A model generated the notes under the pieces. That model ran no database searches and was not told the origin of the DNA. It saw nothing but the letters and a program-made list of their open reading frames with translations. From contig CAZTPM010000001.1 of assembly GCA_964615065.1 (NCBI GenBank), forward strand, positions 1 to 41,068: a stretch of DNA of 41,068 nucleotides, read 5' to 3'. The DNA comes from Candidatus Woesearchaeota archaeon. Lineage in GTDB: Archaea; Nanobdellota; Nanobdellia; Pacearchaeales; GW2011-AR1. The stretch's first letter is position 1. Each line of letters opens with the position of its first letter. Positions 4,652 to 26,289 of this stretch are shown one piece after another. Both the position numbers and the translations under genes were made by a program.

Positions 4652-6958
4652 ATGCGTGTTTTGTATATGAAGTTTAATCCAGATTCAAAATTATATTCTT
4701 ATGAAGTGCAGAGGGAGGCAGGTGAAGATGTTCTTTATATTAATTATCTTGGGGCACCATTTGTTCCGAGCTTGGCTGATTCTCCTGAAATTATGGAGAG
4801 AACAGTTGATTCTTTAATTGAAAATCCAAATGTTTCAAGGATTGTTTTTGTCCAGCAAAAAAATTATAATTATGATTTTGAAGAAACTTCTTTTCTTTTA
4901 GAAATTGCACAGCTTTATGTTTATTTAGTGAAGCAGGAAAAAATTTTGTCGCAGGAAAAATTAGTTACAAATGTTGAAGGTGTTTTTTCAAAAAGGTATA
5001 ACCAGCTTTTTTCATTTTTACTTCTGTTAAAACAAGATCCTGTTTCTGCTTATTTTGAATTAAAAAAAATTATAATTGAATCTAAAATAAATTTAGACAA
5101 GATAAGTCCAGATAGAAGGACAGATTTTATGAGTTATGCGCACCTTCTTGAGAAAATTTTTAATTTGTTTGTAAAAACAAAAATTATTCAAAAAGCAAAA
5201 CCTTTTTTGGCAAATTATTCTAAAGGGAATCGGGAAATTTATTATAAATTATTTAGGCCAGATGTCATACCAAATTTTACTTTTACTCGTTTGGTTTCTG
5301 ATTTGCCTGAAGACGCAGAAATTATTGACCAGTATGAAATTTCAAATAGCGACTATGATATTTCGAATGTTACTATTTTGAAAAAAAAGAATGATGCAAA
5401 ATTTATTTATCACCTGATGCCCCCTGAAAATTCTTTGAGCGAAGATCATAACATGCTTTTAAATTTAGCAAGAAGTGTTTTGGTTGAGCACCAGCCCCAA
5501 GCAGAAGAATTTACAGATACAGAAAGGACAAGGCAAGTTTTTTTTAATATTTCAAAGGATTTATTGCAAGACCTTGCCCAGACAAAACAAATTAGTTTAA
5601 GTTATTCTGGTTTGAATAAATTAGCAACTATTTTAGTTAGGCATACAATTGGTTTTGGATTGATTGAAGTTTTGTTACAAGACAAAAAACTTCAGGATAT
5701 TTCTTTGAATGCACCTATTCCTTTGATACCTATTTTTTTAAAGCATCAGGATTTTGATGAATGTTCTTCAAATATCTTACCGAGTCAAGAAGATGTTGAT
5801 TCTTGGGCTGCAAAGTTTAGGATGATTTCTGGTCGGCCTCTTGATGAAGCAAATCCGATTTTGGATACCCAGTTAGAAATTGGAAAAATTAGAGCACGAA
5901 TAGCGATTATTCAGGCACCCTTATCTCCTGATGGTTTGGCCTATTCAATTAGAAGGCACAGAGAAGATCCTTGGACACTTCCTCTTTTTGTTCAGAATAA
6001 AATGTTAAATCCTTTTGCAGCTGGTTTGTTGAGTTTTTTAATTGATGGTTCACGAACCCTTTTAGTTGCAGGAACAAGAAGTTCAGGGAAAACCTCTTTG
6101 CTGGGGAGTTTAATGCAAGAAATTATTCCTAAGTTTAGAGTTATTGTTATTGAAGATTCATTGGAATTACCTGTTGAATCCCTGAGAAAGTTGAAATATG
6201 ATATTTTACGAATGAAAGTTCGTTCTGCTTTGTTGAAAACAACAACAGAAGTTTCTGCAGAGGACGGGATTAGAACAAGTTTGCGTTTAGGTGATAGTTG
6301 TTTAATAATTGGAGAAGTTAGAAGTGTGGAAGCAAAAGCACTTTACGAAGCAATGCGTATTGGTGCTTTAGCAAATGTTGTGGCAGGAACAATTCATGGT
6401 GCGTCGCCATATGGTGTTTTTGATAGGGTTGTAAATGATTTAGGGGTTCCTGCAACTTCTTTCAAAGCAACAGATATAATTGTTATTTGTAATCCTGTAA
6501 AATCAGCAGATGGTTTGCATTCATGGAAAAGGGTTGTTCAAATTTCAGAAGTCAGAAAACATTGGGAAAAAGATCCTTTGCTTGAACAGGGCTTTGTTGA
6601 TTTAATGAAATACAATGTTGAAAAAGACGAGCTTGAACCAACAGAGGACTTGAGGAATGGAGACAGCGAGATAATAAAAAATATTGCTTCAAGTATAAAA
6701 GGTTGGGCAGGAAATTGGGATGCTGTTTATGATAATATTTTACTTCGTGCAAAAATAAAAAAAGAACTTGTTGATATTGCTAAAAAAATTGGGGACAATA
6801 ATCTTTTGGAAGCTGAATTTAACGAGCAATCAAACAATGCTTTTCATCAAATTTCAGATGAAATTGTAAAAGAAGTCGGATTACCCTTAAGTGAGTTTGT
6901 TTTCCCTGAATGGAAAAAGTGGTTGGAAGAAGAGTTGAAGAAGAAGGAGAAATTGTAA
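4652..6958 (+). CDS. Type IV pilus/archaellum-type secretion ATPase (FlaI/ArlI/PilB/VirB11 superfamily) with long N-terminal extension
   Basis: Walker A GTRSSGKTSLLGS, Walker B-like RVIVIEDSLEL, IIGEVRS box and GTIHGAS His box. Alternative start at ATG 4667. Confidence 0.8.
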   Translation: MRVLYMKFNPDSKLYSYEVQREAGEDVLYINYLGAPFVPSLADSPEIMERTVDSLIENPNVSRIVFVQQKNYNYDFEETSFLLEIAQLYVYLVKQEKILSQEKLVTNVEGVFSKRYNQLFSFLLLLKQDPVSAYFELKKIIIESKINLDKISPDRRTDFMSYAHLLEKIFNLFVKTKIIQKAKPFLANYSKGNREIYYKLFRPDVIPNFTFTRLVSDLPEDAEIIDQYEISNSDYDISNVTILKKKNDAKFIYHLMPPENSLSEDHNMLLNLARSVLVEHQPQAEEFTDTERTRQVFFNISKDLLQDLAQTKQISLSYSGLNKLATILVRHTIGFGLIEVLLQDKKLQDISLNAPIPLIPIFLKHQDFDECSSNILPSQEDVDSWAAKFRMISGRPLDEANPILDTQLEIGKIRARIAIIQAPLSPDGLAYSIRRHREDPWTLPLFVQNKMLNPFAAGLLSFLIDGSRTLLVAGTRSSGKTSLLGSLMQEIIPKFRVIVIEDSLELPVESLRKLKYDILRMKVRSALLKTTTEVSAEDGIRTSLRLGDSCLIIGEVRSVEAKALYEAMRIGALANVVAGTIHGASPYGVFDRVVNDLGVPATSFKATDIIVICNPVKSADGLHSWKRVVQISEVRKHWEKDPLLEQGFVDLMKYNVEKDELEPTEDLRNGDSEIIKNIASSIKGWAGNWDAVYDNILLRAKIKKELVDIAKKIGDNNLLEAEFNEQSNNAFHQISDEIVKEVGLPLSEFVFPEWKKWLEEELKKKEKL

Positions 6959-7010: not shown

Positions 7011-9758
7011 ATGGTGAATTTATCAGAAAAAGAAACTAGAAAGAAAATTATAGACCCAATTTTAGAAAGAACTGGATGGAAGAAAGAATATATTAAAGAA
7101 GAAATTAATTCTGTGAAATCTAATTTCGGAACTAAAAAATTTGTTTTTTTTAAGAAAGATAATATAGAGGTCGGAGATAGATTTATTGATTATCTTCTTT
7201 TGGATGAAGATAATTCTCCTTTAGCTATTATTGAAGCAAAGAAAACATCGATAAGTGTTGAAAAGGGAGAAATTCAATCTAGAACCTATCGAGAAGATAT
7301 TGAGAAACAAACAAAAAAAAGAATCCCTATTTTTTTAACAAATGGGAAACAATGGTATTATGTTGACGAGAAAGATAGAAGAAGACAAGTTCCCCTTCCA
7401 TTTGAACAAAAAGATTTGCATAGGAGAGTTCATCTTTTTGAAAGAGAGCGAGATCCAACTAAAGTAAAGATTAAACCAGAGATTGTGGATAGAGATAGAA
7501 GTATAGAAGCAGTAAAGGTTATTTTAGAACATCTCGAAAAAGGAAATAGGTCCGCACTAATTAATATGGCCACAGGAACGGGGAAGACAAGAGTCGCTAT
7601 GGCAATTATAGACGTATTAATGAGATCAAATTCTGTTAGAAATGTTTTATTTATTGTAGATAGAATTTCTTTATCGAATCAAGCTAAAGAAAATGGGTTT
7701 AAAGAATTTTTTCCAGGAGAGCCTGTTTGTGAATTAAATGTTGAAGGATTTTCTGAAAGTGCTAGGCTTTATGTTTCAACCATTCAAACCTTAATGAGTG
7801 ATAAAAAGCCAAGAGGAAAATTTTATGAAAAATTTGGAATAGGCGCTTTTGATTTAATTGTTTATGATGAAGCCCATCGTTCTTATTATGATAAAAATAA
7901 TGATGTCTTAAAATATTTTGATGCTATCAAACTGGGTTTAACTGCAACCCCTTCAAAAAAAGAAGGGAAAGATACTTTTGAATTATTTGGTTGTGAAGAT
8001 AAAGAACCAACATATAAATATGATTATGATTCTGCTGTTGATGATGAAGTTCTAGCTCCTTATTCTGCAGAGGTCATTGAGACTAAGATTTTATCATTAG
8101 GGATAGAAGGAAAGAAATTAAGCAAAGAATTAAGATTTCAATTGGAAAAACAAGAAGAGAACCCCTATGATTTTCAAACTCCTGGAGCAAGATTTGAAAA
8201 ATTGTTTACAGATTCAAGAACAAATGAATTAATTGTTAGAGAGTTTATTGATAGGTGCTATAAAACAGATGATAGGGTTCCATGTAAGACTATCTTCTTT
8301 TGTGCGAGTGTTAAGCATGCTGAATCTTTAAAAAATATCTTTGATAGGCTTTATCCTAATTTAGCTAGAGAAGTAAGAGTTATTACTTCAGACAGAACCA
8401 GATATATGGATGAAGTTAGAAGATTCAAAAGAAACTCTACTCCGAGAATTGCTTTATCTGTCGGAGTTTTAGATACAGGTATTGATATTCCTGAAATTAT
8501 GAATTTGGTTTTTGTTAAACCTGTTTTTTCTTATATAAGATTCTGGCAAATGCTTGGAAGAGGAACTAGAAATTTAGAAACATGTAAGCATAAGGATTGG
8601 TTGCCTCATAAAGATGGAGTAGCTGTTAAAGATAATTTTCTTATTTTAGATTTTAAATTTGGAGAGCATTCAAATGTAGAGTTTCATGATTTAGATAGGA
8701 CAAGAGAAAAGTCCAAATTAATCGACGCTAAAACAAGAATCTTCTTAGAGCAGGTTGATTTGCTTGAAAAAGATTTAAAGGAAAATGAGAAGGAAGTTAT
8801 TGAAAAGGCGATTATAGAAACTGTGAGAAGTATTGACATTGATTCTCCTCTTGTTTTAGAAAAGAAAAATATAATCAAAAAAGTTATTTCTAAAAAATTT
8901 GATTTGAAAGAGCATGTCAAAGAATTGAGGGAAGAAATTGCTCCTTTACTTATTTATTCTAAATCTGAAAATTCAAAAGTTTATGCATTTATTGGAAAAT
9001 GTGTTAAGTTGTTTGACGCTATTAAAGAAGACTATAAGGATAAGATTTGGAAGATTGAAGAGTTTGTTAAAGAAAGAGTTGAGAATGTTTGGGAGAGAAG
9101 TTTGGAAGTGGTTAGAGAGAAAGATGAGCAAATAAAAAAAGTTTTGGGAGATGAATTTTGGCAAGACATAACTTTTGAAGATGTTGATTTCTTAATTAGA
9201 GAAATTGCTTCTTTAATGATTTATTATGAAATCTATGGAAAGAAGATGTTGAGGATTGATGCTCCTGATGTTGTTATTAATGTTGAAAAATTTGAGATGA
9301 AAGTTAAAGAAAATCCTAATTTTGAATATTTCTTAAATAGCAATCCTTTAATTAAAAAAATTAAAGAAAGTAAAGGAGTTACATCTAGAGAATTGCTTGA
9401 AATTGAAAAGAAACTTTCAAGTTTAAATTCTGCTTGGACAATTGAAAATATTCAAAATATTAGAAAAATAGATTTTGTATTATTTTTAAGACAGCTTTTA
9501 CAGGTAATTGATTTGCCTGACCCTCAAGAAATGATTAAGCAAGAATTTGATAAGTTTGTGATTAGCAGGAATGAGCATTATAATTCAGAGCAATTGAAAT
9601 TTCTGAGATTATTAAAACAGGTTTTTGTAAGAGCAAAGCATATTGAATTAAAGGATTTTGCAAAGCATCCTTTGACAGAAGAAAGGCCCTTGGATTTGTT
9701 TGAAAAAAAGCAGTTGATTGAGATTGTTGATAAGTGTAATAAGTTGAGGTGGCGGTGA
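7011..9758 (+). CDS. hsdR: Type I restriction enzyme R subunit (COG4096/EcoEI-like)
   Basis: HsdR_N-like N-terminus EKETRKKIIDPILERTGW. Helicase motifs MATGTGKTRVA (I), VYDEAHRS (II, DEAH), GLTATP (III) and QMLGRGTR (VI). Long helical C-terminal tail. Confidence 0.85.
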   Translation: MVNLSEKETRKKIIDPILERTGWKKEYIKEEINSVKSNFGTKKFVFFKKDNIEVGDRFIDYLLLDEDNSPLAIIEAKKTSISVEKGEIQSRTYREDIEKQTKKRIPIFLTNGKQWYYVDEKDRRRQVPLPFEQKDLHRRVHLFERERDPTKVKIKPEIVDRDRSIEAVKVILEHLEKGNRSALINMATGTGKTRVAMAIIDVLMRSNSVRNVLFIVDRISLSNQAKENGFKEFFPGEPVCELNVEGFSESARLYVSTIQTLMSDKKPRGKFYEKFGIGAFDLIVYDEAHRSYYDKNNDVLKYFDAIKLGLTATPSKKEGKDTFELFGCEDKEPTYKYDYDSAVDDEVLAPYSAEVIETKILSLGIEGKKLSKELRFQLEKQEENPYDFQTPGARFEKLFTDSRTNELIVREFIDRCYKTDDRVPCKTIFFCASVKHAESLKNIFDRLYPNLAREVRVITSDRTRYMDEVRRFKRNSTPRIALSVGVLDTGIDIPEIMNLVFVKPVFSYIRFWQMLGRGTRNLETCKHKDWLPHKDGVAVKDNFLILDFKFGEHSNVEFHDLDRTREKSKLIDAKTRIFLEQVDLLEKDLKENEKEVIEKAIIETVRSIDIDSPLVLEKKNIIKKVISKKFDLKEHVKELREEIAPLLIYSKSENSKVYAFIGKCVKLFDAIKEDYKDKIWKIEEFVKERVENVWERSLEVVREKDEQIKKVLGDEFWQDITFEDVDFLIREIASLMIYYEIYGKKMLRIDAPDVVINVEKFEMKVKENPNFEYFLNSNPLIKKIKESKGVTSRELLEIEKKLSSLNSAWTIENIQNIRKIDFVLFLRQLLQVIDLPDPQEMIKQEFDKFVISRNEHYNSEQLKFLRLLKQVFVRAKHIELKDFAKHPLTEERPLDLFEKKQLIEIVDKCNKLRWR

Positions 9759-9856
9759 AATTCATAAAATACGCAATTTATGAAAAAAGGTAAATCTTTG
9801 GTTTACTAAAAAACACGAATAGGAAGTTTTAAATAACCTTTTTGAGTGAGGAATGT

Positions 9857-10702
9857 ATGACAATTCAAAAATCTCAGGAAGAAAGTGATAGCATGATAGT
9901 CTCTTCTAAGTTGCCGCGAGAAGAGTTGCTCAACTTTAAGAAATTGTGTGATTTCGAGGACAAGACCCCTAGCAAGAAAATTAGGGAACTTATCAATCTG
10001 GAAGTTGACGATAGATTTGGGGGGATGTATAAGAGCAGATACGATAAAGAAAAAATAAGGCAGTTTCAAATTAGTGCAATTAATGATTATAATTCTAGCC
10101 AAAGAGTGGGAGATATTGCTAAAGTTAATCTTGTTGAAAGAACAGATGGGAAGTTTACTCAAATTGGTTTAAGACCCTTGATTGATGAAGATATTTTCTT
10201 GCCAAAAGGAAAAGTATATCCTGTTCTTCCTTCAATAGGGATGGATGTTGCAAATGGCGAGATGAATTTTTTAATAGGTCATATTTTAAAGGATGAGAAA
10301 ATACAAAGAGTAAGCATTATCAAGGAAAAACTTAAAGAATTTCCCAGAGAGATAAATTTCAGTGAATCTACTATTTTAATTTCTAATGATTTTTTCGTAG
10401 AACTTGCAATGTCTCTTATGCATAGAATTAAGTATGAAAATAATAAAATGATTCTTGACTTTCATCATAAATTAATGTTTGTTCCTGGAGAAGCCATGAG
10501 AAATAAAATAATTATAATTGAGGATGGAGCAGTCTTATGGGCGAAAGAAAAATTTCATAATGGGTTTACGGGTAAGGATGAAAGTTTAAATATTTCTATT
10601 AAGCCAAAAATAGGCGGAAAAGTAGATATTACTGTGAGAAGTGTTAATCGAATTAAAGCTCTCTACCCTGAGATGATTAAAATTTTGGAGGTTGGAGAAT
10701 GA
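9857..10702 (+). CDS. Ribbon-helix-helix (CopG/Arc-like) N-terminal domain protein with about 220-aa uncharacterised C-terminal domain
   Basis: The track ORF starts at TTG 9842. ATG 9857 is preceded by GTGAGGA. The segment MIVSSKLPREELLNFKKLCDFEDKTPSKKIRELI fits a beta-strand plus two-helix RHH pattern. I do not recognise the rest. Confidence 0.45.
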   Translation: MTIQKSQEESDSMIVSSKLPREELLNFKKLCDFEDKTPSKKIRELINLEVDDRFGGMYKSRYDKEKIRQFQISAINDYNSSQRVGDIAKVNLVERTDGKFTQIGLRPLIDEDIFLPKGKVYPVLPSIGMDVANGEMNFLIGHILKDEKIQRVSIIKEKLKEFPREINFSESTILISNDFFVELAMSLMHRIKYENNKMILDFHHKLMFVPGEAMRNKIIIIEDGAVLWAKEKFHNGFTGKDESLNISIKPKIGGKVDITVRSVNRIKALYPEMIKILEVGE

Positions 10703-11160
10703 AACAATTTGATTATTATATCTTTATTGACTATTCTGTAAATGTTATTGGATATATAATCCTTGAAAATAAAAAACTCTTTGAATTAATTCCTTTGATT
10801 TCTAAATTTGCACATTATAAGAATTTGAAGCACAAGAATACTTATATTCATTCTATTAAAAAAATAATTGAGAAGAATAATGTCTTAAGTTTTTTTGAAG
10901 GGTATAAAATCAGAGAAATGAGGCAGAACATAGAAATTTATATGAATGTTTTTGATTTTATCAAGAAGCATGATAATTGTATAATTTTTGTTTCAATAGA
11001 TGACAATGAATATTCTAACTTTAGGAAATTTGTCAATATTGTCGATGGAAGTAAAACAGTTATTAAAATAGAGAGTAAATTAATTAAGAATACTCCTGAA
11101 TACAGAGCAAGTCTTGTTTTGGATACTTTACTAAATATTGAGAGATTAAAAAATGGTTGA
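10699..11160 (+). CDS. Small (153 aa) hypothetical protein with nuclease-like acidic pattern (PIN-like or RNase H/YqgF-like); candidate toxin partner of the upstream RHH protein
   Basis: ATGA overlap with the upstream gene. N-terminal YYIFIDYS (D11) strand, IIFVSIDDNE (D101/D102), NIVDGS (D116) and LVLDTLL (D142). Fold assignment is by eye only. Confidence 0.35.
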   Translation: MKQFDYYIFIDYSVNVIGYIILENKKLFELIPLISKFAHYKNLKHKNTYIHSIKKIIEKNNVLSFFEGYKIREMRQNIEIYMNVFDFIKKHDNCIIFVSIDDNEYSNFRKFVNIVDGSKTVIKIESKLIKNTPEYRASLVLDTLLNIERLKNG

Positions 11161-11173
11161 AATAAAAATAAAA

Positions 11174-11258
11174 TGTAGGGTAAGGGCGTCCGTCAATCCT
11201 ACTCCCCATACCAACGCAAAGCGTATATGGCTTTCGTCAGGTCGCTTTCCCCTGCATG
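11174..11258. ncRNA. Isolated GC-rich (about 54% by hand count) structured intergenic element; candidate small RNA or recombination/regulatory site
   Basis: Imperfect 15-nt closing inverted repeat TGTAGGGTAAGGGCG / CGCTTTCCCCTGCA. It encloses the hairpin CCATA-CCA-ACGC-AAA-GCGT-A-TATGG. No ORF. Composition differs sharply from the flanks. Confidence 0.3.
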
Positions 11259-11319
11259 ATTATTTAAATTGTTTAAATTATTTAAATGTTTTGGTTGTTG
11301 GGAAAGTGGAGGTTGGGAG

Positions 11320-12015
11320 ATGAGTGAAGAGGAATTATTAAGCCAATTAGAAAGAGTAAAAGAACTTAATTCAGATTTAAAGAAAGAACTTCAAAATAAT
11401 CTTGCTTCTTACGATGTAACTTTAAAAACTAGAAATTTAACAGAAGAAATTTTTGTTAAACTTAGAATTTGTTTAGATAAATTAATTTTTTATTATCTTA
11501 ATAAAAATCATTATCTTGTTGATTTATCTAAAGTTTCTTTTCCAATTTCTAAAACACAAAATGATTTTAATAGTGTTATAACTAATTATGGATTAAAAAA
11601 TATAAATCAAATTCATCCTCAATTTTTTAGTTTATTGTTTGATTCTCAACCATTTTCATCAAAAGAAAAAGAAATCTTAACTATCTTGCATGAAAAAGGG
11701 TCTAAGGAAAAACATCAATTTTTGATTAAAGAAAAAAAAGAAACAAACCATATCCGAACAACTTTTAAAAGCCAAAATGGAGAAATTAGTTGGAGCAAAC
11801 AAGGAGTTTTTTTTGGAGAAGGAGTTTCTATGAATGGGGTTCCAATTAATCCAGCTACACAAGAACCAGCGTTTATACCCCCGACACATAAATTAATTAG
11901 GCATTATGAAATATCTATAAAACTTGTAGATAAAAATATAGAAATAACTTTTTTATGTGATTCCTTAATTAAATTAGTTAAGGAGATAGTTACAAAAACA
12001 TTTAAATTAAAATGA
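11320..12015 (+). CDS. Hypothetical 231-aa protein translationally coupled to hsdS
   Basis: GGAGG at 11308-11312, 7 nt before ATG 11320 (the track start at TTG 11269 is less likely). ATGA overlap with hsdS at 12012. Coiled-coil N-terminus. I recognise no motif. Confidence 0.5.
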   Translation: MSEEELLSQLERVKELNSDLKKELQNNLASYDVTLKTRNLTEEIFVKLRICLDKLIFYYLNKNHYLVDLSKVSFPISKTQNDFNSVITNYGLKNINQIHPQFFSLLFDSQPFSSKEKEILTILHEKGSKEKHQFLIKEKKETNHIRTTFKSQNGEISWSKQGVFFGEGVSMNGVPINPATQEPAFIPPTHKLIRHYEISIKLVDKNIEITFLCDSLIKLVKEIVTKTFKLK

Positions 12016-13148
12016 AAATTAAACAATTACCTCAAGGATGGAAAGAAGTTGAACTTGGAGAACTTTTGAATTACGAGCAACCAACAAAATACATTGTTGA
12101 AGATACAAATTATAATGATAATTATAACACGCCAGTTTTGACAGCAGGCAAATCATTTATTTTAGGGCACACAGATGAAACAGATGGAATTTATAATAAA
12201 TTACCCGTAATAATTTTTGATGATTTTACTACAGATAATAAATTTGTGAATTTTAAATTTAAAGTAAAGTCTAGTGCCATGAAATTATTAACTCCAAAAA
12301 ATAAAGAAATTGATTTAAAATTTATCTTCTTATTAATGCAGACAATTAAAGTTAATTCAATAACCCATAAAAGATATTATCTATCTAAATACAGAAACAT
12401 CAAAATCCCCCTCCCCCCACCCCCCACTCAAAAACAAATAGTTTCAATTTTAGAAAAAGCCGAAAAACTAAAACAAAAAAGAGAACAAGCCGATAAATTA
12501 ATGGAGGATTATTTGAAAAGTGTTTTTAATGAAATGTTTTTGAAAAGAAAAGGAGAGTTTAAAATAAAAAAATTAGTAGATATAACTAAAAAGATAACTG
12601 ATGGAAAGCATGGAGATTGCGAGAATGAAGAAAATTCAGGATATTATTTTATTAGTGCAAAAGATATTTTTAAGGGGGAAGTTCATTATGAAAATTCTAG
12701 ACAAATAAAAAAAGAAGGATATTTAGAAGTCAATAAAAGAGTAAATCTTGAAATAAAAGATGTTTTGATTACAAATAGTGGAACAATTGGAAAAACGGCA
12801 ATAATGAATAATAGAGAGAATGTGGATAAAACAACATTTCAAAAAAGTGTCGCTATAATAAAACCAAATAAAAAATTAATACAATCTATTTATTTAAAAA
12901 ATTTTTTAGATACAATCATAATTAATTTAATGAGCACTTCTTCAGGATCTTCTCAAAAAAATCTTTTATTAAAAGATATAAGAAATATCAAAATCCCCCT
13001 CCCGCCTCTTGCTCTTCAAAAAAAATTTGCTTCTATTGTTGAGCGGGTTGAAAAATTAAAAGAAAAACAAAAACAATCTAAAGAAGAAATAAGTCAGATG
13101 TTTGATGTGCTGATGCAGAAGGCGTTTAAGGGGGCGTTGATGAAATGA
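12012..13148 (+). CDS. hsdS: Type I R-M specificity subunit
   Basis: Two target-recognition halves, each followed by a conserved helix: IKIPLPPPPTQKQIVSILEKAEKLKQKREQ and IKIPLPPLALQKKFASIVERVEKLKEKQKQ. Confidence 0.85.
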   Translation: MKIKQLPQGWKEVELGELLNYEQPTKYIVEDTNYNDNYNTPVLTAGKSFILGHTDETDGIYNKLPVIIFDDFTTDNKFVNFKFKVKSSAMKLLTPKNKEIDLKFIFLLMQTIKVNSITHKRYYLSKYRNIKIPLPPPPTQKQIVSILEKAEKLKQKREQADKLMEDYLKSVFNEMFLKRKGEFKIKKLVDITKKITDGKHGDCENEENSGYYFISAKDIFKGEVHYENSRQIKKEGYLEVNKRVNLEIKDVLITNSGTIGKTAIMNNRENVDKTTFQKSVAIIKPNKKLIQSIYLKNFLDTIIINLMSTSSGSSQKNLLLKDIRNIKIPLPPLALQKKFASIVERVEKLKEKQKQSKEEISQMFDVLMQKAFKGALMK

Positions 13149-13570
13149 AGTTTAATAAAAACGACTTTATGTGGATATTTATAGTATTGGCGATTATAAT
13201 TCTTGTAGGACAAATAATTTCTTTAGTATTTTTATTTAAGATTCCTTCTAAAATTGAAAGCAATGTTGATAAAATAGAACAATCAGCTAGTAAATTAGAT
13301 TCTAAACTGAATACCTTAGACAACCTAAACAATAAGATCTCAAATATAGAAACTAAAATAATTGAATTATCAACTAAATACCCCCCTAACCAAACAATTA
13401 ATATTAATAATATGAATCAGCAAGAATTAAATCGCGCAATCAATAATGCAATTGATTTAAAGTTTAATAATATTTCTGAGAAGATTCAAATTAATTTTAT
13501 TTTAAATATAATTTTTGGGTCATTATTATCAATTGGTTTTATAATCTATTTATGGGGGAGGAAGAGATGA
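13145..13570 (+). CDS. Small bitopic membrane protein with central coiled coil, unknown function
   Basis: ATGA overlap with hsdS. N-terminal TM WIFIVLAIIILVGQIISLVFLF, heptad-like KIESNVDKIEQSASKLDSKLNTLDNLNNKISNIETKIIEL, and C-terminal TM ILNIIFGSLLSIGFIIYLW. Confidence 0.5.
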   Translation: MKFNKNDFMWIFIVLAIIILVGQIISLVFLFKIPSKIESNVDKIEQSASKLDSKLNTLDNLNNKISNIETKIIELSTKYPPNQTININNMNQQELNRAINNAIDLKFNNISEKIQINFILNIIFGSLLSIGFIIYLWGRKR

Positions 13571-14010
13571 ACAATAGAGGCCAAATCCCTTATATGAAAG
13601 AGATTTTTGCCATCATAGTTTTACTAGCCTTAATCCCTGTATTCACATCTTTATTTAATCAAAACAGTCCTACTTGTGATTGTTCATCATATCAAAATCA
13701 ATTAAATAATTGTAATCAAGAACTCGCAAATCCAAAAGTAATTTATATTAATAATACTATTGAAGTTCCTGTTATTCAAACTATTGAAAAGGAAGTCTAT
13801 AAAGATACTGAAATTGAAAAAGTGATCCTCTCTCTTTCGTTAATAATTTCTTTGTCATTAACAATACTCTCTTTTAAAATAAAATTGCCTAGAAGATTAG
13901 AAGAAAGATTAGATAAATTAGAAGATACAATCACTTTAATTAAATATGGCTCTTTAATTTTATCAATACTAATCTTTATTAAATTGGCGATCATCTTTAA
14001 TTTAACATAA
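13567..14010 (+). CDS. Small polytopic membrane protein with CDC..C motif, unknown function
   Basis: GGAGG at 13556-13560 before ATG 13567, which forms an ATGA overlap with the upstream stop (the track start at 13552 is also possible). About three hydrophobic segments. Stop TAA at 14008-14010 lies 1 nt before the hsdM ATG at 14012. Confidence 0.45.
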   Translation: MNNRGQIPYMKEIFAIIVLLALIPVFTSLFNQNSPTCDCSSYQNQLNNCNQELANPKVIYINNTIEVPVIQTIEKEVYKDTEIEKVILSLSLIISLSLTILSFKIKLPRRLEERLDKLEDTITLIKYGSLILSILIFIKLAIIFNLT

Positions 14011-14011
14011 A

Positions 14012-15493
14012 ATGCTACACACAGAACTCAAATCACAAATAAACAAACTATGGGATAAGTTTTGGTCTGGTGGAATCTCTAATCCTCTTCAGGCAATTGA
14101 ACAAATATCTTTCTTGATTTTCATGAAAAGATTTGAAGATATGGATGTTCGAAGAGAACAAGAGGCAAGTTTAACAGAAGAAGAATTTATATCCATGTTT
14201 AAAAAACATGAAAATTGTCGTTGGAGTGTTTGGAGTGAATATAGTGCCGATAAGATTTTAGACCATGCAAGAGATGTTGTATTCCCTTTTATGAGAAATT
14301 TAGGGGATGGAGATTCTTTTTCAAAATATATGAATAGTGCTAATTTTGAAATTCCCACAGCATCATTACTTATAGAGGGTGTTAAGATAATTAACGATAT
14401 GCACATTAAAGAACAAAACCAAGATGCTCAGGGAGATATGTATGAATATTTATTAAGTGAATTGCAAACAGCTGGAAAAAATGGGCAATTCAGAACACCA
14501 AGACATATAATTAAAATGATGGTTGAATTAACTAAACCACAATACGGGGATTTAATTTTAGATCCTGCCTGCGGAACAGCAGGTTTTTTAATAAATGCTT
14601 ATGAATATATCTTAAAACAAAATACTTCTAAAGACCTAATAAAAAAAGATGAAGAAGGAAATGAATATAATTTCAAGGCAGATAAATTAAACTCTAAGCA
14701 GAAACAAATTCTTGATGAAGAAAGCTTATATGGTTTTGATATTGACCAAACCATGACAAGAATAGCTTTGATGAATTTAATGATGCATGGAATAAGCAAA
14801 CCAAATTTAGAACAATTAAATACTCTTTCAAAAAGATATAATCAAGATAATACTTATGATTTAATCTTAGCAAATCCCCCTTTCAAAGGTTCTATTGATG
14901 AATCAGAAAGCAGTGATAATCTTACAATAAAAAGCAAAAAAACAGAATTATTATTTTTAGAATTAATGTATAATTCCTTAACAAATGGGGGAAGATGTGC
15001 AGTTATTGTTCCAGATGGGGTTTTGTTTGGTAATTCAAAAGCCCATAAATTAATTAGGAAATTACTTTTAGAAGATTGTAGATTAGATGCTATAATAAAA
15101 ATGCCTTCTGGAGTTTTCAAACCTTATGCTGGAGTTTCTACAGCTGTTTTATTTTTCACAAAAGGAGAGCCAACAAAAAAAGTTTGGTTTTATGATATGC
15201 AAAATGATGGTTTTAGTTTGGATGATAAAAGAACAAAAATAGAAGGAAGTAATCTCCCAGACATAATTGAAAGATTCAAAAAAAGAAAGGAAGAATCTAA
15301 TGAAGATAGAAAAAAGAAACACTTCTTTGTGCCAATTGAAGAAATAAAAGAAAATGATTATGACCTAAGCATTTCTAAATACAAGGAAATAGAATATGAA
15401 GAAAAAGTATATGAAAAACCAGAGATTATAAAAAAGAAAACTCTAAAAATTGAGGAAGAGATTGTTAAGGGATTGAAAGAGTTGAAGTTGTAA
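14012..15493 (+). CDS. hsdM: Type I R-M N6-adenine DNA methyltransferase subunit
   Basis: HsdM_N-like LWDKFWSGGISNPLQAIEQISFLIFMKR. SAM motif I DPACGTAGFL. Motif IV LANPPFKGS. Confidence 0.9.
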   Translation: MLHTELKSQINKLWDKFWSGGISNPLQAIEQISFLIFMKRFEDMDVRREQEASLTEEEFISMFKKHENCRWSVWSEYSADKILDHARDVVFPFMRNLGDGDSFSKYMNSANFEIPTASLLIEGVKIINDMHIKEQNQDAQGDMYEYLLSELQTAGKNGQFRTPRHIIKMMVELTKPQYGDLILDPACGTAGFLINAYEYILKQNTSKDLIKKDEEGNEYNFKADKLNSKQKQILDEESLYGFDIDQTMTRIALMNLMMHGISKPNLEQLNTLSKRYNQDNTYDLILANPPFKGSIDESESSDNLTIKSKKTELLFLELMYNSLTNGGRCAVIVPDGVLFGNSKAHKLIRKLLLEDCRLDAIIKMPSGVFKPYAGVSTAVLFFTKGEPTKKVWFYDMQNDGFSLDDKRTKIEGSNLPDIIERFKKRKEESNEDRKKKHFFVPIEEIKENDYDLSISKYKEIEYEEKVYEKPEIIKKKTLKIEEEIVKGLKELKL

Positions 15494-15536
15494 ACCAAAA
15501 ACATTTGCAAACACTTGTTATAATATTATTACATTG

Positions 15537-15557
15537 AATTCTCCAAACATTTATTAA
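15537..15557 (+). repeat. 21-nt perfect direct repeat AATTCTCCAAACATTTATTAA, copy 1 (TATA-like core)
   Basis: Identical 21-mer at 16667-16687. The flanks are also similar over about 35 nt. Lies 48 nt upstream of ATG 15605. Confidence 0.7.
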
Positions 15558-15571
15558 ACCCTTTCCAACAA

Positions 15572-15603
15572 AACATTTATAAATGTTATAACAATGTTAT
15601 AAC
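15572..15603 (+). promoter_or_regulatory. Candidate operator: 16-nt perfect palindrome AACATTTATAAATGTT overlapping tandem ATGTTATAAC x2, directly before the AbrB-domain gene
   Basis: Palindrome at 15572-15587. ATGTTATAAC at 15583-15592 and 15594-15603. A related TTGTTATAAT at about 15515. Confidence 0.4.
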
Positions 15604-15604
15604 T

Positions 15605-16369
15605 ATGGAACAAGAATTAATTAAACCGATTGTTAAGGTGGGGAATAGTGCAGGAGTAGTTTTGCCTAAGGAGTGGCTTGGTGGGAAAGCAAAAATAAAA
15701 CTTGTTAAAAAACCAATTAATATAAAGAAAGATGTTTTAGAGATTCTTGCAGCGTATTTATATGATGTTCAGGGAATTTATTTAGTTGGCAGTTATGCTC
15801 GTGAAGAACAAACAGATAAAAGTGATGTTGATGTTTTAGTTATAACTAATAAAACAAATAAAAAAATTGAACAAGGAAAGTATAATCTTATTTTGATTTC
15901 TAAAGAACAAGTTGAAAATTCTTTAAGAAATAATGTTTTGCCCCTTCTTCCTATGTTAAAAGAGGCAAAGGTTGTTTTAAATGCTGAATTAATTGTGGGA
16001 TATAAAAAAACTGGTTTGACAAAAAGAAATTTAAAATTTCATATAGAAACAACAAAGTCTGCTATGAGGGTGGATAAAGAATCCATTGAAATTAAAGAGG
16101 AAGAGAATGAAAGCATTTCAGATAATATTATGTATTCTTTGGTTTTAAGATTACGTGAATTATATATTGTAGATTGCTTAATAAAAAATAAAAAATTAAC
16201 TACAAAAGGATTTTTGGAATTAGTTAAAACAATTGTTGGTTCTATTGAACCTTATAATTCTTATCTTCGCTCAAAAAATAAAAACAAGGTCAAGAAAGTT
16301 GTGTCTGTTAATGAAGCAAGAAAAATTTATGATTATATAATTAAGAATATAGATAAGCAAATAAAATGA
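15605..16369 (+). CDS. Fusion protein: SpoVT/AbrB-like DNA-binding domain plus minimal nucleotidyltransferase (MNT) domain plus helical C-terminus with an RNxxxH (HEPN-like) motif
   Basis: AbrB-type VKVGNSAGVVLPKEW. MNT signature GSYAREEQTDKSDVDVLVI (GS-x10-DxD). RNLKFH at residues 141-146 (nt 16025-16042). Confidence 0.6.
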   Translation: MEQELIKPIVKVGNSAGVVLPKEWLGGKAKIKLVKKPINIKKDVLEILAAYLYDVQGIYLVGSYAREEQTDKSDVDVLVITNKTNKKIEQGKYNLILISKEQVENSLRNNVLPLLPMLKEAKVVLNAELIVGYKKTGLTKRNLKFHIETTKSAMRVDKESIEIKEEENESISDNIMYSLVLRLRELYIVDCLIKNKKLTTKGFLELVKTIVGSIEPYNSYLRSKNKNKVKKVVSVNEARKIYDYIIKNIDKQIK

Positions 16370-16542
16370 AGGAAAATAAACGACTAAAGAAGATTGAAAG
16401 TTTAAATGAACAAAAAGAGAAGCACAAAGATAAAATAAAAAGTTATGCTGGAAAAGATTATGCTTTGCTTGAGTACTGGAAAAAAGAAATTGAGAGATTT
16501 GAAGATGAGACTGAAGAAGAAAAAGACAAGTTGAAAAAGTAA
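16366..16542 (+). CDS. Small (58 aa) charged coiled-coil protein; not in the ORF track (below its length cutoff)
   Basis: ATGA overlap with the upstream stop. Hand translation: MKENKRLKKIESLNEQKEKHKDKIKSYAGKDYALLEYWKKEIERFEDETEEEKDKLKK. Confidence 0.35.
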   Translation: MKENKRLKKIESLNEQKEKHKDKIKSYAGKDYALLEYWKKEIERFEDETEEEKDKLKK

Positions 16543-16666
16543 TTTTAAGGATTTGATAAAATCTTTTTTCCTGAATATTTTAATTTTTAGAAATCCTCTT
16601 TTATGCTCTCATTGGGTTAGGAATTTGTCTGAATTTTACTTGAATATCTAATTAATATAACACTTA

Positions 16667-16687
16667 AATTCTCCAAACATTTATTAA
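16667..16687 (+). repeat. 21-nt perfect direct repeat AATTCTCCAAACATTTATTAA, copy 2
   Basis: Identical to 15537-15557. Lies 39 nt upstream of ATG 16726, which has GAGGAG at about 16714. Confidence 0.7.
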
Positions 16688-16725
16688 TTCTTTTTAATTA
16701 GATTGTTAATAAAAGAGGAGAGATT

Positions 16726-18894
16726 ATGCAACCAAATAGAAAGCTAAATGTAGATGAGATTCTTAGAAAACATAGTGCGCGAATCAAGAGTCAGATGAAA
16801 AGCCCTGAAATTAGTTCAGGTGATTATAGTGAATCCTATAGGAAGTTCAAGGCAGAAATGGCACCTGAGTTTTCAGGATATGAAAGATGGTGTAAAAGTT
16901 TAGGAAATGTTATTAAGTTAAAGGCCTCTGCAAAAGATGAAGCAAGAGTTAAACGGGCAATAGAAATTGCTCATCTTGAAATTGAGCCATGGCAAGCTTT
17001 GACTTTGAGCATAATGTGTTTTGTTGTTGTTTTTTTAATTGGTTTGTTTTTTTCTGTTGCAATAACTTTGATTAAAGGAGGTTTGGAGTTTTTCCCTGTT
17101 TTGTTTTTCTTTTTAATGATTGTTTTGTCTTTATTTTTATTTTATTTTGTTAATGGATATCCAGAACGTCTTGCAAATAAGTGGAGATTAAAAGCTTCGT
17201 CGCAAATGGTTCCTGCAATTTTGTATATTGTTGTTTACATGAGGCATACACCGAATTTAGAAAAAGCAATTTCTTTTGCTTCCCAGCATTTGCAATATCC
17301 TCTTTCGCTTGATTTTAAAAAAGTTTTTTATAATGTTCAGGTTGGGAAATTTTCAACAATAAAAGAAAGCTTGGATAATTATTTAGAAACCTGGAGAGAT
17401 TATTCTGTTGAATTTATAGAGGCCTTTCATTTGATTGAAGCAAGTTTATTTGAGCCAAGCAATTCCAGAAGAATTGATACTCTTGAAAAATCTTTGCAAG
17501 TTGTTCTTGATGGTGTTTATGACAAGATGTTAAAATTCACGCACAATGTCAGAAGCCCTTTAACAAATGTTTATATGCTTGGTGTTGTTTTGCCTACACT
17601 TGGTTTGGCTTTGTTGCCCCTTGCTTCTGCAATGGTTGGGGATTTTATCAAGCCACTTCATGTTTTTCTTTTGTTTAATTTAATTATTCCTTTTTTTGTT
17701 TTTTATTTAACAAACAAAGTTATGTTGTTAAGACCTGGTGGTTATGGTGAATCTAGTTTGCTTGAGAGAAATCCTCTTTATGCAGAATATACAAATAAGA
17801 AACCTTATCACAAAGCATTTTTAATTTGTTTGCCTTTTTTTATTTTAGGTCTTTTGCCTTTGGTTTTTGGCTACACCCCTATTCCGCAAATGCTTGGCTT
17901 GCCAATGGATTTTACTTTTTCTGAAATTGGTTTAAGTGTTTTTGGAAAAGAATATTTTTTTGGTTTTATGGAAACAGGGGCAGGAATTACTGGTCCTTTT
18001 GGGACAGGTGCTTTAATTCTTAGTTTGTTTTTTCCTTTGGGTTTGGCTTTGTTTTTTTCAATGTCTTTTAAGGAAAGAACAAAAAATTTAATTGTTGGAC
18101 GAAAAAAAACAAAACAACTTGAAAAAGAATTTAATACTTCTTTATTTCAGCTTGGGAATAGAATTGGAAATGGAACCCCCCCTGAACTTTCATTTGGAAA
18201 AGTTGCAGAATCTTCAAAAGGTTTAATGACAGAAGATTTTTTTAGACGAGTTAATTATAATATTCAGCAAATGGGAATGAGTGTTGATAAAGCGATTTTT
18301 GACAGAGGACGTGGTGCAATAATTTATTATCCTTCTGATTTAATTTCAACGAGTATGAGGGTGCTTATTGAATCTGCAAAAAAAGGTTTGAAAATCGCAG
18401 CAACAAGTTTGATGAGTATCTCAGAATATGTTAAGAATATTTCTAAGATTACAGATAGGTTAAGAGACATGCTTGCTGAAATTGTTTCAGATATGAAAAG
18501 CAATATGACTTTTTTAGCACCTTTGCTTTCTGGTGTTGTTGTTGGTTTAGCTTCAATGATTGCTGCGATTTTGAATAAATTAAAATTGGCAAGTTTGGGC
18601 GGAGAGGCAGCAAGTTTAGGAAATTTAGATGGAATTATGAATTTGTTTGATGTTACTAAAATGATTCCACCTTATTTCTTGCAAATTTTTATTGGAATTT
18701 ATATTATTCAAATTATTTTTATTTTAACAGGAACCTTAGTTTCAATTGATTCTGGTGAGGACAAACTTGAAAAAACTTATAAGATTTCTTTGAATTTGAA
18801 AAAAGGAATTTTGCTTTATTTTGTAACAGCATTAGTTTCAACTCTTGCTTTATTTGCTTTAACTTCGATTGTGTTGGGGGGATTGATAAATTAG
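16726..18894 (+). CDS. Large polytopic membrane protein; candidate pilus/archaellum assembly platform (FlaJ/PilC/TadC-like)
   Basis: Two clusters of multiple TM helices separated by soluble helical regions. Sits in a pilus gene context with the ATPase, pilins and peptidase. I see no sharp motif. Confidence 0.4.
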   Translation: MQPNRKLNVDEILRKHSARIKSQMKSPEISSGDYSESYRKFKAEMAPEFSGYERWCKSLGNVIKLKASAKDEARVKRAIEIAHLEIEPWQALTLSIMCFVVVFLIGLFFSVAITLIKGGLEFFPVLFFFLMIVLSLFLFYFVNGYPERLANKWRLKASSQMVPAILYIVVYMRHTPNLEKAISFASQHLQYPLSLDFKKVFYNVQVGKFSTIKESLDNYLETWRDYSVEFIEAFHLIEASLFEPSNSRRIDTLEKSLQVVLDGVYDKMLKFTHNVRSPLTNVYMLGVVLPTLGLALLPLASAMVGDFIKPLHVFLLFNLIIPFFVFYLTNKVMLLRPGGYGESSLLERNPLYAEYTNKKPYHKAFLICLPFFILGLLPLVFGYTPIPQMLGLPMDFTFSEIGLSVFGKEYFFGFMETGAGITGPFGTGALILSLFFPLGLALFFSMSFKERTKNLIVGRKKTKQLEKEFNTSLFQLGNRIGNGTPPELSFGKVAESSKGLMTEDFFRRVNYNIQQMGMSVDKAIFDRGRGAIIYYPSDLISTSMRVLIESAKKGLKIAATSLMSISEYVKNISKITDRLRDMLAEIVSDMKSNMTFLAPLLSGVVVGLASMIAAILNKLKLASLGGEAASLGNLDGIMNLFDVTKMIPPYFLQIFIGIYIIQIIFILTGTLVSIDSGEDKLEKTYKISLNLKKGILLYFVTALVSTLALFALTSIVLGGLIN

Positions 18895-25239: not shown

Positions 25240-26289
25240 ATGTATGAGGTGATTTTTTTATTGGTCTTGGGAATGTTGTGGGTTTTATTTGCAACTTTGC
25301 AAGATTTGAAAACTAATGAAGTTGCTAATTGGGTTAATTTTTCTTTGATAATTTTTGCTCTTGGTTTTAGGTTTTTTTATGATTTCTTTGAAAATTCGAC
25401 TCAAAATGTTTTTGGAACTCTTCTTGTTTTTCTAATAACTTTTTTTATATTAATGGGAATGATTTTGTTTTTTGAAGCTTCTTTTAAAAAATTCAAAAAC
25501 GAAGTTTGGTTTTTTATTGGTGTTTTCTGTATAGGACTTATTTTGTTATTTTTTGAATTTAAATTCCAAATTCTTTTTAATTTATTTTCTCAAAATAGTT
25601 TTTCTTTTTTATATTTTGGTGTTTTAGGTTTGGTAATTTTCTTTTTAATTGGGAATTTCTTGTATTATAGCAGATTATTTGCAGGAGGAGATGCAAAACT
25701 CATGACTGCTCTTGGTTCTATTTTGTTTTTCTCTGAAAGTTTATCTTCCAATATAAATAATTTGGTTTTGTTCTTGGTTTTGTTCTTTTTTGTTGGGACA
25801 CTTTATGGTTTAATTGCAAGTTTTTATTTTTGTTTAAAGAATTTAAAGAATTTTAAAAAAGAATTTTGGAAAAGATTACAAAAAATAAAAAAAACTATTT
25901 ATGGATTTATGATTTTTGGTTTGGTTTTAATGGCAATAGGTTTTACTGAAAATTTATTTTTTGTTTTTGGGATTCTGATTTTTCTTTTTCCTGGTCTCTA
26001 TTTATTTGCAAAATCTATTGATGAGGTTTGTATGATAAAAAAAATAAAAACAGAAAAATTAACACAAGGGGATTGGCTTTATAAAAATTTGAAAATTGGA
26101 AATAAGATGATTGAAGCAAATTGGAATGGCTTGGCAAAAAAACAAATTGATTTTATTAAAAAGAAAAAGGATTTTGTTTTAATCAGAAAGGGAATCCCTT
26201 ATGTGCCAACTTTTTTAATTAGTTTTATTTTCTTGGTTGCCGTTAGGTTTTTTGGATTCTTAAAAAATATTTTTCTTTTTTTAAATTAA
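25240..26289 (+). CDS. Archaeal prepilin/preflagellin peptidase (A24 family, FlaK/PibD-like)
   Basis: First Asp motif TLQDLKTNEV and second Asp motif FAGGDAKLM. Polytopic membrane protein. C-terminal domain ending in GIPYVPTFL. Confidence 0.85.
   Translation: MYEVIFLLVLGMLWVLFATLQDLKTNEVANWVNFSLIIFALGFRFFYDFFENSTQNVFGTLLVFLITFFILMGMILFFEASFKKFKNEVWFFIGVFCIGLILLFFEFKFQILFNLFSQNSFSFLYFGVLGLVIFFLIGNFLYYSRLFAGGDAKLMTALGSILFFSESLSSNINNLVLFLVLFFFVGTLYGLIASFYFCLKNLKNFKKEFWKRLQKIKKTIYGFMIFGLVLMAIGFTENLFFVFGILIFLFPGLYLFAKSIDEVCMIKKIKTEKLTQGDWLYKNLKIGNKMIEANWNGLAKKQIDFIKKKKDFVLIRKGIPYVPTFLISFIFLVAVRFFGFLKNIFLFLN

Follow-up and report, generated by a model that had tools for sequence, protein, structure and literature searches.

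A stretch of 41,068 nucleotides (nt) of DNA from a Candidatus Woesearchaeota archaeon (GenBank assembly GCA_964615065.1, contig CAZTPM010000001.1, positions 1 to 41,068; hereafter the window) carries a type I restriction-modification (R-M) locus in which two small open reading frames (ORFs), here called A and B, lie between the specificity gene hsdS and the methyltransferase gene hsdM. What are two small membrane proteins doing inside a restriction operon? An initial annotation of the window drew attention to the separation of hsdS from hsdM, which is real but is not exceptional by itself. Genes embedded in type I R-M systems are known and frequent, and most of them are defence genes, including PrrC, TgvAB and the PDC and HEC candidates; for type I R-M, BREX, DISARM and Hma operons such positions have given rise to the term 'guilt by embedding' (Payne et al. 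2024, bioRxiv 10.1101/2024.01.29.577857). TgvAB is embedded in this way in VPI-2 of Vibrio cholerae (PMC11411939), as are the rlo genes of Campylobacter. The novelty here is that the embedded defence candidates are small surface-type membrane proteins and that their hosts are DPANN-type archaea.

We find that A and B are real genes for membrane proteins, that they represent two unrelated small archaeal (DPANN-type) families, and that they are interchangeable cargo in a variable hsdS-hsdM slot and not R-M subunits. As to their function, we tentatively favour an accessory, envelope-acting defence layer that is co-expressed with the methylase core, a reading to which we give somewhat less than even weight.

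The DNA of the window is archaeal, with 25-35% G+C, and encodes RadA, eIF2-alpha and a GAN-type DHH nuclease. The type I R-M locus spans 7011-15493 and contains hsdR, three ORFs that match no family, hsdS, A, B and hsdM. In the following list, lengths are in amino acids (aa), TM stands for transmembrane, dN/dS for the ratio of non-synonymous to synonymous substitution rates, and AF2 for AlphaFold2.

7011-9758, + strand: hsdR, type I restriction subunit, 915 aa; Pfam ResIII, HSDR_N and EcoEI_R_C, PADLOC REase_I 2e-94
9842-10702, + strand: embedded ORF o286 in the hsdR-hsdS region, without TM segment; no family match
10699-11160, + strand: embedded ORF o153, whose start overlaps the end of o286, without TM segment; no family match
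11269-12015, + strand: embedded ORF o248, without TM segment; no family match
12012-13148, + strand: hsdS, specificity subunit, 378 aa; Pfam Methylase_S 1.2e-29, PADLOC Specificity_I 3e-50
13145-13570, + strand: ORF A, two-TM membrane protein, 141 aa; homologue family, dN/dS and AF2 model
13567-14010, + strand: ORF B, three-TM membrane protein, 147 aa; homologue family and dN/dS
14012-15493, + strand: hsdM, methyltransferase, 493 aa; Pfam N6_Mtase 3e-69 and HsdM_N, PADLOC MTase_I 3e-174

The coordinates and junctions from hsdS to hsdM are exactly as first annotated. The stop codon of hsdS (TGA, 13146-13148) overlaps the start codon of A (ATG, 13145-13147) in an ATGA, the stop codon of A (TGA, 13568-13570) overlaps the start codon of B (ATG, 13567-13569) in the same way, and the stop codon of B (TAA, 14008-14010) is separated by one base from the ATG of hsdM at 14012 (TAA-A-ATG). 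A further ATGA overlap joins the end of o248 (12015) to the start of hsdS (12012). The Shine-Dalgarno-like site for A is formed by the C-terminal ..KGG.. codons of hsdS (AAGGGGG), and the codons of the GRKR tail of A, GGGAGGAAGAGATGA, likewise hold a Shine-Dalgarno-like site together with the start of B. We place the start of B at 13567 and not at the ATG at 13552, because a Shine-Dalgarno-like GGGGGAGGAAGAG run lies just upstream of 13567 and all homologues begin with MNKK[GA]Q. No Shine-Dalgarno-like site was found upstream of hsdM, whose start lies 1 nt past the stop of B, and hsdM must therefore use reinitiation. The C-terminal codons of A, GGG AGG AAG/AAA ..A TGA (G-R-K-K/R-stop), are kept whichever unrelated gene follows; this arrangement of tail and next start was seen in the window (13556-13570) and in the homologous loci L001 (~8409-8426), L003 (~8400-8417) and L005 (~8388-8405), so that selection on the tail may act partly at the RNA level. 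Judged by these junctions, A and B are translated by predicted coupling on one mRNA with HsdS and HsdM.

A stretch between hsdS and hsdM without coding function, or with only the remains of decayed genes, would agree with the A+T-rich, low-complexity composition of the region and with the failure of either ORF to match a database family. Set against this are open frames of 141 and 147 codons where stops occur at about 9% per codon; for this base composition the chance of an open frame this long is ~1e-6 per start position. The A family has 21 members. A word-indexed search returned 14 homologues of B, and a profile search of 1.84 billion representatives returned 31 relatives, 22 of them at E<1e-10; 29 of the 31 are 63-183 aa long (mostly 130-170 aa, some being fragments), two long proteins (366 and 532 aa) matched with weak E-values, and two more long ones fell at E>1e-4. 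Homologues of A and B share 35-81% identity, and the pairwise dN/dS is 0.06-0.24 for A and 0.12-0.23 for B, against 0.02-0.23 for hsdM of the same loci. The homologues, and dN/dS values in the range of hsdM, are why we take both genes to be real. Spurious or decayed ORFs are ruled out by dozens of homologues, dN/dS of 0.06-0.24 and invariant motifs, to which the conserved Shine-Dalgarno-like sites and start/stop overlaps add, and the probability that remains for them is practically nil.

Both families are found with R-M systems of several unrelated kinds. A comes immediately after hsdS in the window, as it does in L001, L003, L015, L017/18, L019 and L020, whose HsdM are 65-73% identical to that of the window, and again in an unrelated AR11-type type I family with the gene order M-x-S-A and HsdM 27% identical (L007/L008, L021); in L005 and L029 its neighbours are type III mod/res genes, in two different arrangements. 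B separates hsdS from hsdM in the window, L009, L010/11 and L025; in a third type I family, of M-S-R order and with HsdM 27% identical (L030), hsdM precedes it and hsdS follows; and in L031 it ends a type III operon, after three other small TM proteins. Five unrelated kinds of R-M system, three of type I and two of type III, thus host members of the two families in or beside the operon. Homologues mostly outside R-M loci would have spoken against the initial annotation, and this is not what was found: 11 of 13 distinct contexts of A and 6 of 7 informative contexts of B are R-M loci. Counted as independent associations, 7 of 10 contexts are with R-M, for which p ~1e-7 against an assumed background of 5%.

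Three of these loci deserve a separate description. In L031 (7181-8486) the type III mod-res genes are followed by four tightly spaced small TM ORFs on the same strand, of 55, 153, 65 and 161 aa, the last being the B homologue; strings of membrane ORFs therefore also trail type III systems. L025 (JAQVMR010000080.1) is a 2.9-kb contig with an archaeal-type hsdS-C-B-hsdM order, C being a further small TM family described below, in a metagenome-assembled genome labelled 'Patescibacteria group bacterium'. The label probably reflects a binning error; transfer between ultra-small archaea and bacteria is less likely. In L033 (5649-7997) a 782-aa protein with about 14 zinc-ribbon repeats round a central domain, which has a weak match to DUF4379, precedes the B homologue. 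An integrase and a HicAB pair are among the neighbouring genes, and this B member may sit in a defence or mobile context of another kind.

Within similar R-M loci the embedded genes change rapidly. A and B occur together only in the window and in one identical contig, and we reject the idea that they are an obligate pair; of the conservation that the initial annotation looked for in related hsdS-hsdM loci, A and B are each kept but the combination is not. The HsdM proteins of L003, L010 and L015 differ by a dN of only 0.07-0.09 and are more than 90% alike, and yet L015 carries A alone, L003 carries A and a 136-aa protein, and L010 carries a 159-aa protein, B and a Bro-N protein without A. Because near-identical HsdM carry differing cargo, A and B are not R-M subunits, and we also reject either of them as an extra Hsd subunit, which would be expected at every near-identical HsdM/HsdS locus and is not always present. 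The downstream neighbour of A is B in the window and elsewhere a 5-TM protein, a 2-TM Cys protein, a 1-TM coiled-coil protein, a member of a family here called D, or nothing; upstream of B lies A, a member of family C or a soluble HExxH protein. Coupling to the 3' codons of A or hsdS is kept regardless of the gene that follows. The obligatory co-expression with HsdM and HsdS that had been proposed is accordingly half right: the coupling is real, but an obligatory partnership is unlikely when near-identical HsdM swap cargo.

The cargo of this slot is predominantly membrane protein. With A and B excluded, 11 of the 16 protein families in the hsdS-hsdM slot have TM segments, compared with a background of 29% (p = 0.001), and the hsdR-hsdS slot is not enriched (4 of 12 families). 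Two of the small TM families recur. Family C (117-128 aa; motifs ..DSWLLIL.G.SS.FYF.. and ..LSKECFNISIIIF..) is present in L009 (7613-7999), L019 (1829-2182) and L025 (1825-2187), where it adjoins B, or A and another protein, in R-M slots. Members of family D (91-97 aa) come immediately after A in one type I locus (L018, 401-676) and one type III locus (L029, 4770-5063).

TM helices are predicted in both A and B. For B the initial annotation had described a polytopic membrane protein with a CDC motif, and this description holds, with three predicted TM segments and the motif SPTCDC in the window:

13567-13584, + strand: N-terminus MNNRGQ (consensus MNKK[GA]Q), a prepilin-type (EppA-like) class III signal-peptide motif
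13603-13656, + strand: TM1, about residues 13-30
13666-13758, + strand: predicted extracellular loop with a Cys motif and a YxNxT sequon
13819-13875, + strand: TM2, residues 85-103
13876-13947, + strand: conserved cytoplasmic amphipathic helix KIKLPxxLEExLxxLE...K
13948-14007, + strand: TM3, residues 128-147, with a conserved Lys/Arg within it (IFIKL)

The N-terminus is the best-conserved region of the B family (0.78). It matches the processing sites of the substrates of the EppA-type prepilin peptidase of Methanococcus, which are KGQ or RAQ with Gln at +1 (PMC4371748). Among 78 ORFs with an N-terminal TM segment from 18 loci, a [KR][GA]Q N-terminus was present only in six B members, two pilin-like ORFs of the window and two other R-M-embedded proteins, L007_186 and L019_106. 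All full-length B members have the two additional C-terminal TM helices. The Cys motif reads (S/C)PxCDCSxYxNxLxxC, and a typical loop holds four Cys; in the window residue 34 (13666-13668), a near-invariant Cys in the family, is Ser, which leaves three loop Cys. C37, D38, S40, Y60, N62 and T64 are invariant in the loop, and across the family the region between TM1 and TM2 contains 77 N-x-S/T sequons where shuffled sequences give 21.4 (3.6-fold). The mean count of Lys and Arg (K+R) is 7.3 on the inside and 2.5 on the outside, which places the N-terminus inside, the first loop outside and the second loop inside; a surface-exposed B loop is a firm prediction. The cytoplasmic helix of ~19-24 residues (mean K+R in the loop 5.4) has the invariant or near-invariant residues K104, I105, L107, P108, E112, E113 and K126.

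A had been annotated as bitopic, which we correct: two hydrophobic segments (residues ~8-31 and ~116-137) flank a helical region.

13166-13237, + strand: TM1, residues 8-31 (hydropathy, AF2 helix)
13379-13450, + strand: invariant motif YPPNQTININNMNQQELNRAINNA, residues 79-102 (alignment)
13490-13555, + strand: TM2, residues 116-137 (hydrophobic segment), followed by the C-tail GRKR

The AF2 model of A (predicted local distance difference test score, pLDDT, 75; predicted template-modelling score, pTM, 0.29) has two long helices, 5-78 and 92-139, with a loop between them, and six clean heptads can be read directly from the sequence of the first. The motif YPPNQTI.NN..Q..LN..INNA spans the loop and the start of the second helix; Y79, P80, P81, N82, Q83, T84, I85, N88, N89, N96, I99, N100 and N101 are invariant in the alignment, and conservation is 0.91 in the motif region compared with 0.64-0.74 elsewhere and 0.55 in the N-terminal tail. 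The C-tail GRK[RK] argues for both termini inside and the stalk outside, a topology that leaves ~7 + 4 residues in the cytoplasm. We hold surface exposure of A with moderate confidence.

Searches of databases and structures gave no relative for either family. Against Pfam (to E 5), NCBIfam, PHROGs and PADLOC, A and B returned coiled-coil and compositional noise, all of it short of the cut-offs (for example BLOC1_2, an Rz-like spanin at 0.002 and TIGR04402 at 0.0015). The 5027 PADLOC models, which include PDC and HEC, gave no consistent match with 12 A and 24 B members, LeoC appearing at E = 0.0018 in 1 of the 12 A members only. Profile searches of the PDB found no relative, nor did Foldseek with the A model against PDB and BFVD. 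In homology tests A and B were unrelated to each other, A was unrelated to the TM-coiled-coil-TM protein L007_186, and B shared with L003_136 and L019_106 nothing beyond the common MNKK[GA]Q N-terminus. The other embedded TM proteins had no match above cut-off to DUF95 or any Pfam family; a weak 8xMP match led nowhere, and a literature search on it was empty. A scan with bacterial-type promoter and terminator models, which are irrelevant for an archaeon, stayed at chance level, and a repeat search showed no island boundaries.

The reading that we favour would work as follows. B would be anchored with its prepilin-type N-terminus inside, its probably glycosylated, Cys-rich loop outside and its short conserved helix inside; A would have a membrane helix at either end, two long helices between them and the invariant motif at the tip. 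Exposed at the surface, the two proteins would hinder or sense the entry of foreign DNA, whether at virus adsorption, at delivery of the virus genome or in pilus-dependent uptake, and the R-M system would act as a second line behind them. An envelope defence layer fits best because the families accompany five kinds of R-M system, are interchangeable, lack an enzymatic or sensor domain and have outward features, at least in B; from these properties we infer both the defence role and the mechanism at the level of entry.

Several observations weigh against an outward-facing defence layer. No homologue of A or B has a known function, two distant A members (L027, L028) and the B member of L033 lie outside recognisable R-M loci, and the embedding argument is statistical, with loci that were ascertained through A and B themselves. 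No relatives of A or B were found in IMG/VR, GenBank phages or PLSDB plasmids, and classical entry-exclusion proteins are virus-encoded. In A the K+R counts are nearly even (3.87 in the tails, 3.73 in the flanks of the central domain). That domain lacks Cys, and its sequons are not enriched (30 observed, 38.6 expected); on these grounds it could be cytoplasmic. How the two long helices of A pack against each other is uncertain in the model, as its low pTM indicates, the AF2 model of B is unreliable (pLDDT 60) and too poor for a structure search, and the hydrophobic core of B begins 7-10 partly polar residues past the GQ, unlike that of canonical pilins.

The same families might instead be non-defence surface cargo, hitch-hiking in a slot at which a mobile R-M island readily recombines, and serving adhesion, contact of an episymbiotic DPANN cell with its host, or pilus-accessory or envelope functions with no link to restriction. 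The fast turnover of the slot, which also takes up clearly unrelated genes (NOV_C, Bro-N, an AlbA_2-like protein), would suit such passengers, as would the integrases that flank L003, L007, L009, L021 and L033, the housekeeping contexts of distant A members, and the pilin-type N-terminus and probably glycosylated loop of B, which are typical of archaeal surface proteins. DPANN genomes are moreover rich in unknown small membrane proteins, at a background of 25-29% here. We nevertheless consider this explanation somewhat unlikely: both families associate repeatedly and independently with five unrelated R-M systems, A keeps its place next to the 3' end of hsdS, with the coupling conserved, in type I families that are unrelated to each other (two of them), the TM enrichment is confined to the hsdS-hsdM slot and not shared by hsdR-hsdS, and published surveys find embedded genes to be mostly defence-related. 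A different kind of defence was proposed in the initial annotation, by analogy with PrrC: a latent abortive-infection pore or depolariser would be held by the intact R-M complex and freed when a virus inactivates restriction. Abortive-infection systems often have small TM effectors (CBASS, Pycsar, retron Ec48). A and B would be translated stoichiometrically with the R-M operon in which they are embedded, they have conserved polar or charged residues in their TM helices (N121, S126 and S129 in A, the Lys of IFIKL in TM3 of B), and the conserved cytoplasmic helix of B could contact a partner. The analogy has fared poorly all the same, as neither a nuclease nor an ATPase domain is present and the partners are of both type I and type III, which share no subunit that could serve as a common restraint. 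Nor did Pfam, NCBIfam or PADLOC yield a sensor or enzymatic domain or a consistent effector match; only ~11 residues of A face the cytoplasm under the favoured topology, the best-conserved parts are the Cys/sequon loop of B (predicted outside) and the tip of A (outside under the same topology), and near-identical HsdM pair with A or B interchangeably. A restrained effector of this kind is, in our estimate, quite improbable.

A further possibility is that A and B localise the R-M enzyme to the membrane where DNA enters, either as proteins, through the cytoplasmic helix of B or the helical domain of A if that is cytoplasmic, or at the level of the mRNA, in that A and B, inserted while they are being translated, would keep the hsdS-hsdM transcript at the membrane together with the proteins nascent on it. 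The membrane ORFs tightly coupled between hsdS and hsdM on one mRNA, with A always directly 3' of hsdS, speak for this, anchoring through mRNA would tolerate the many unrelated small TM proteins that fill the slot, and the topology of A is ambiguous. A mere anchor would, on the other hand, have no need of extracellular motifs, sequons and a prepilin-type signal, and members occur at operon 3' ends (A in L007 and L021, B in L031) and outside R-M loci. Tethering of the R-M complex to the envelope, another suggestion of the initial annotation, is conceivable only through the B helix or an inverted A, and we regard a localising role of either kind as very doubtful. More broadly than the defence layer that we favour, R-M operons of DPANN archaea may carry interchangeable cassettes of small surface-exposed membrane proteins, several of them with prepilin-type signal peptides, as a so far unrecognised membrane arm of restriction that gates or senses DNA entry at sites of pili or uptake and is coupled to R-M physically or through membrane-anchored hsdS-hsdM translation; this generalisation is speculative and, as it stands, unlikely. 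Archaeal natural transformation depends on type IV-like pili (PMC10133366), which makes the prepilin-type motif in B and other R-M-embedded proteins a lead but not evidence.

Several known systems bear comparison with A and B. Like embedded defence genes, they are flanked by core hsd genes of the same strand, with which they are co-expressed, their homologues recur in unrelated R-M systems, and the cargo varies between similar loci. Those genes, however, encode cytoplasmic nucleases, ATPases and GmrSD-like enzymes, whereas A and B are small membrane proteins without an enzymatic domain, match no catalogued PDC or HEC family, have DPANN-type archaeal hosts and occupy a slot with strings of unrelated small TM proteins. 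PrrC of EcoprrI, an anticodon nuclease that resembles ABC ATPases, is soluble and binds to the R-M complex. A and B share with it an accessory place in a type I locus and possibly a role upon failure of restriction; they differ in having no ABC-ATPase or anticodon-nuclease domain and in being membrane proteins whose best-conserved parts are predicted to face outward (for A under the favoured topology). A published survey finds PrrC embedded almost only in type I R-M; A and B are not fixed to one R-M type but occur with type III also.

The small size, membrane anchoring, outward parts, diversity, fast turnover and lack of an enzymatic domain of A and B recall the small membrane proteins of superinfection exclusion, such as Imm and Sp of T4, lactococcal Sie2009, Ltp of TP-J34 and gp15 of HK97. 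These are encoded by viruses or prophages, and A and B are unrelated to them in sequence, cellular, and located inside R-M operons. Zorya (ZorAB) and Kiwa (KwaAB) are membrane complexes that detect invasion at the envelope and cooperate with cytoplasmic nucleases; the idea of envelope sensing is common to both cases, and A has a long helical stalk, but A and B match no ZorA/B or KwaA/B models of PADLOC, are far smaller, and have neither a motor nor a peptidoglycan-binding domain nor a large cytoplasmic domain. Another comparison is with archaeal clusters of several highly variable small membrane proteins, sometimes beside R-M genes, for which membrane-associated defence was proposed in 2014 (PMC4158269). 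That system is centred on arCOG01996 (DUF95/COG1300), whereas the embedded proteins tested here match no Pfam family above cut-off, and the cassettes described here lie inside the R-M operon with predicted translational coupling.

Around the R-M locus, the window contains pilus-related genes and a gene for a polytopic membrane protein:

4652-6958: FlaI/TadA-like pilus ATPase
16726-18894: polytopic membrane protein, 722 aa
21514-25023: six small pilin-like ORFs with an N-terminus M..KK[GA]x followed by a hydrophobic stretch
25240-26289: Peptidase_A24, 349 aa

The link to these neighbouring pilus genes that the initial annotation drew is not general, for other loci lack them, but B itself has the prepilin-type N-terminal motif; a general link to pilus operons is rejected, the pilus neighbourhood being specific to the window. 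B resembles archaeal class III signal-peptide proteins in its start MNKK[GA]Q, which three other R-M-embedded proteins have too, and in its sequon-rich loop, as in pilins, and the window encodes the Peptidase_A24 protein and pilin-like ORFs with the same motif. It differs from archaeal pilins in having two more TM helices towards the C-terminus, which would prevent its extraction into a filament, in the gap of 7-10 residues between GQ and core, and in an acidic residue that is common at +5 to +8 but not fixed at +5; it has no Pfam pilin match, and other B loci have no nearby pilus genes. The R-M island (9.5 kb, 7011-16542) sits between the pilus ATPase and the 722-aa membrane protein and may have split a type IV pilus operon.

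Some further features of the island were recorded. L001 has a homologue of o286 in the corresponding slot (64% identity), and the type I locus of L030 has another (24%). The probable start of o248 is an ATG near 11320, giving a protein of about 232-248 aa, and its position is taken in L010 by an AbiJ_NTD4 protein. At ~12408-12428 hsdS, a gene of ~25% G+C, contains a C-rich tract, CCCCCTCCCCCCACCCCCCAC, that encodes IPLPPPPT in the central conserved HsdS region and might allow phase variation of specificity by strand slippage. Downstream of hsdM, within 15605-16542, lies a gene for a 254-aa nucleotidyltransferase with an AbrB/MazE-like N-terminus and an MNT-type nucleotidyltransferase domain, which has weak matches to PDC-S09, HalB and MntA. 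A 50-nt direct repeat of 74% identity (15534-15583 and 16664-16713) precedes this gene and the gene for the 722-aa protein, and so brackets the nucleotidyltransferase gene together with the 58-aa partner that overlaps it. The repeat could have arisen by duplication of a promoter, or be a scar left by the insertion of a toxin-antitoxin-like or defence module.

R-M is usually treated as purely cytoplasmic, and A and B would point to a component at the level of the envelope in archaea, which would be either a first-line barrier to entry or a link between DNA entry and restriction. They would add membrane proteins to a catalogue of defence-embedded genes that now consists of soluble enzymes, and they would open a way into the many small, unknown membrane proteins that DPANN genomes encode. 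Even if A and B are mere hitch-hikers, the locus is still a clear operon-internal hot-spot for cargo, in which the 3' codons of each preceding gene themselves provide for translational coupling.

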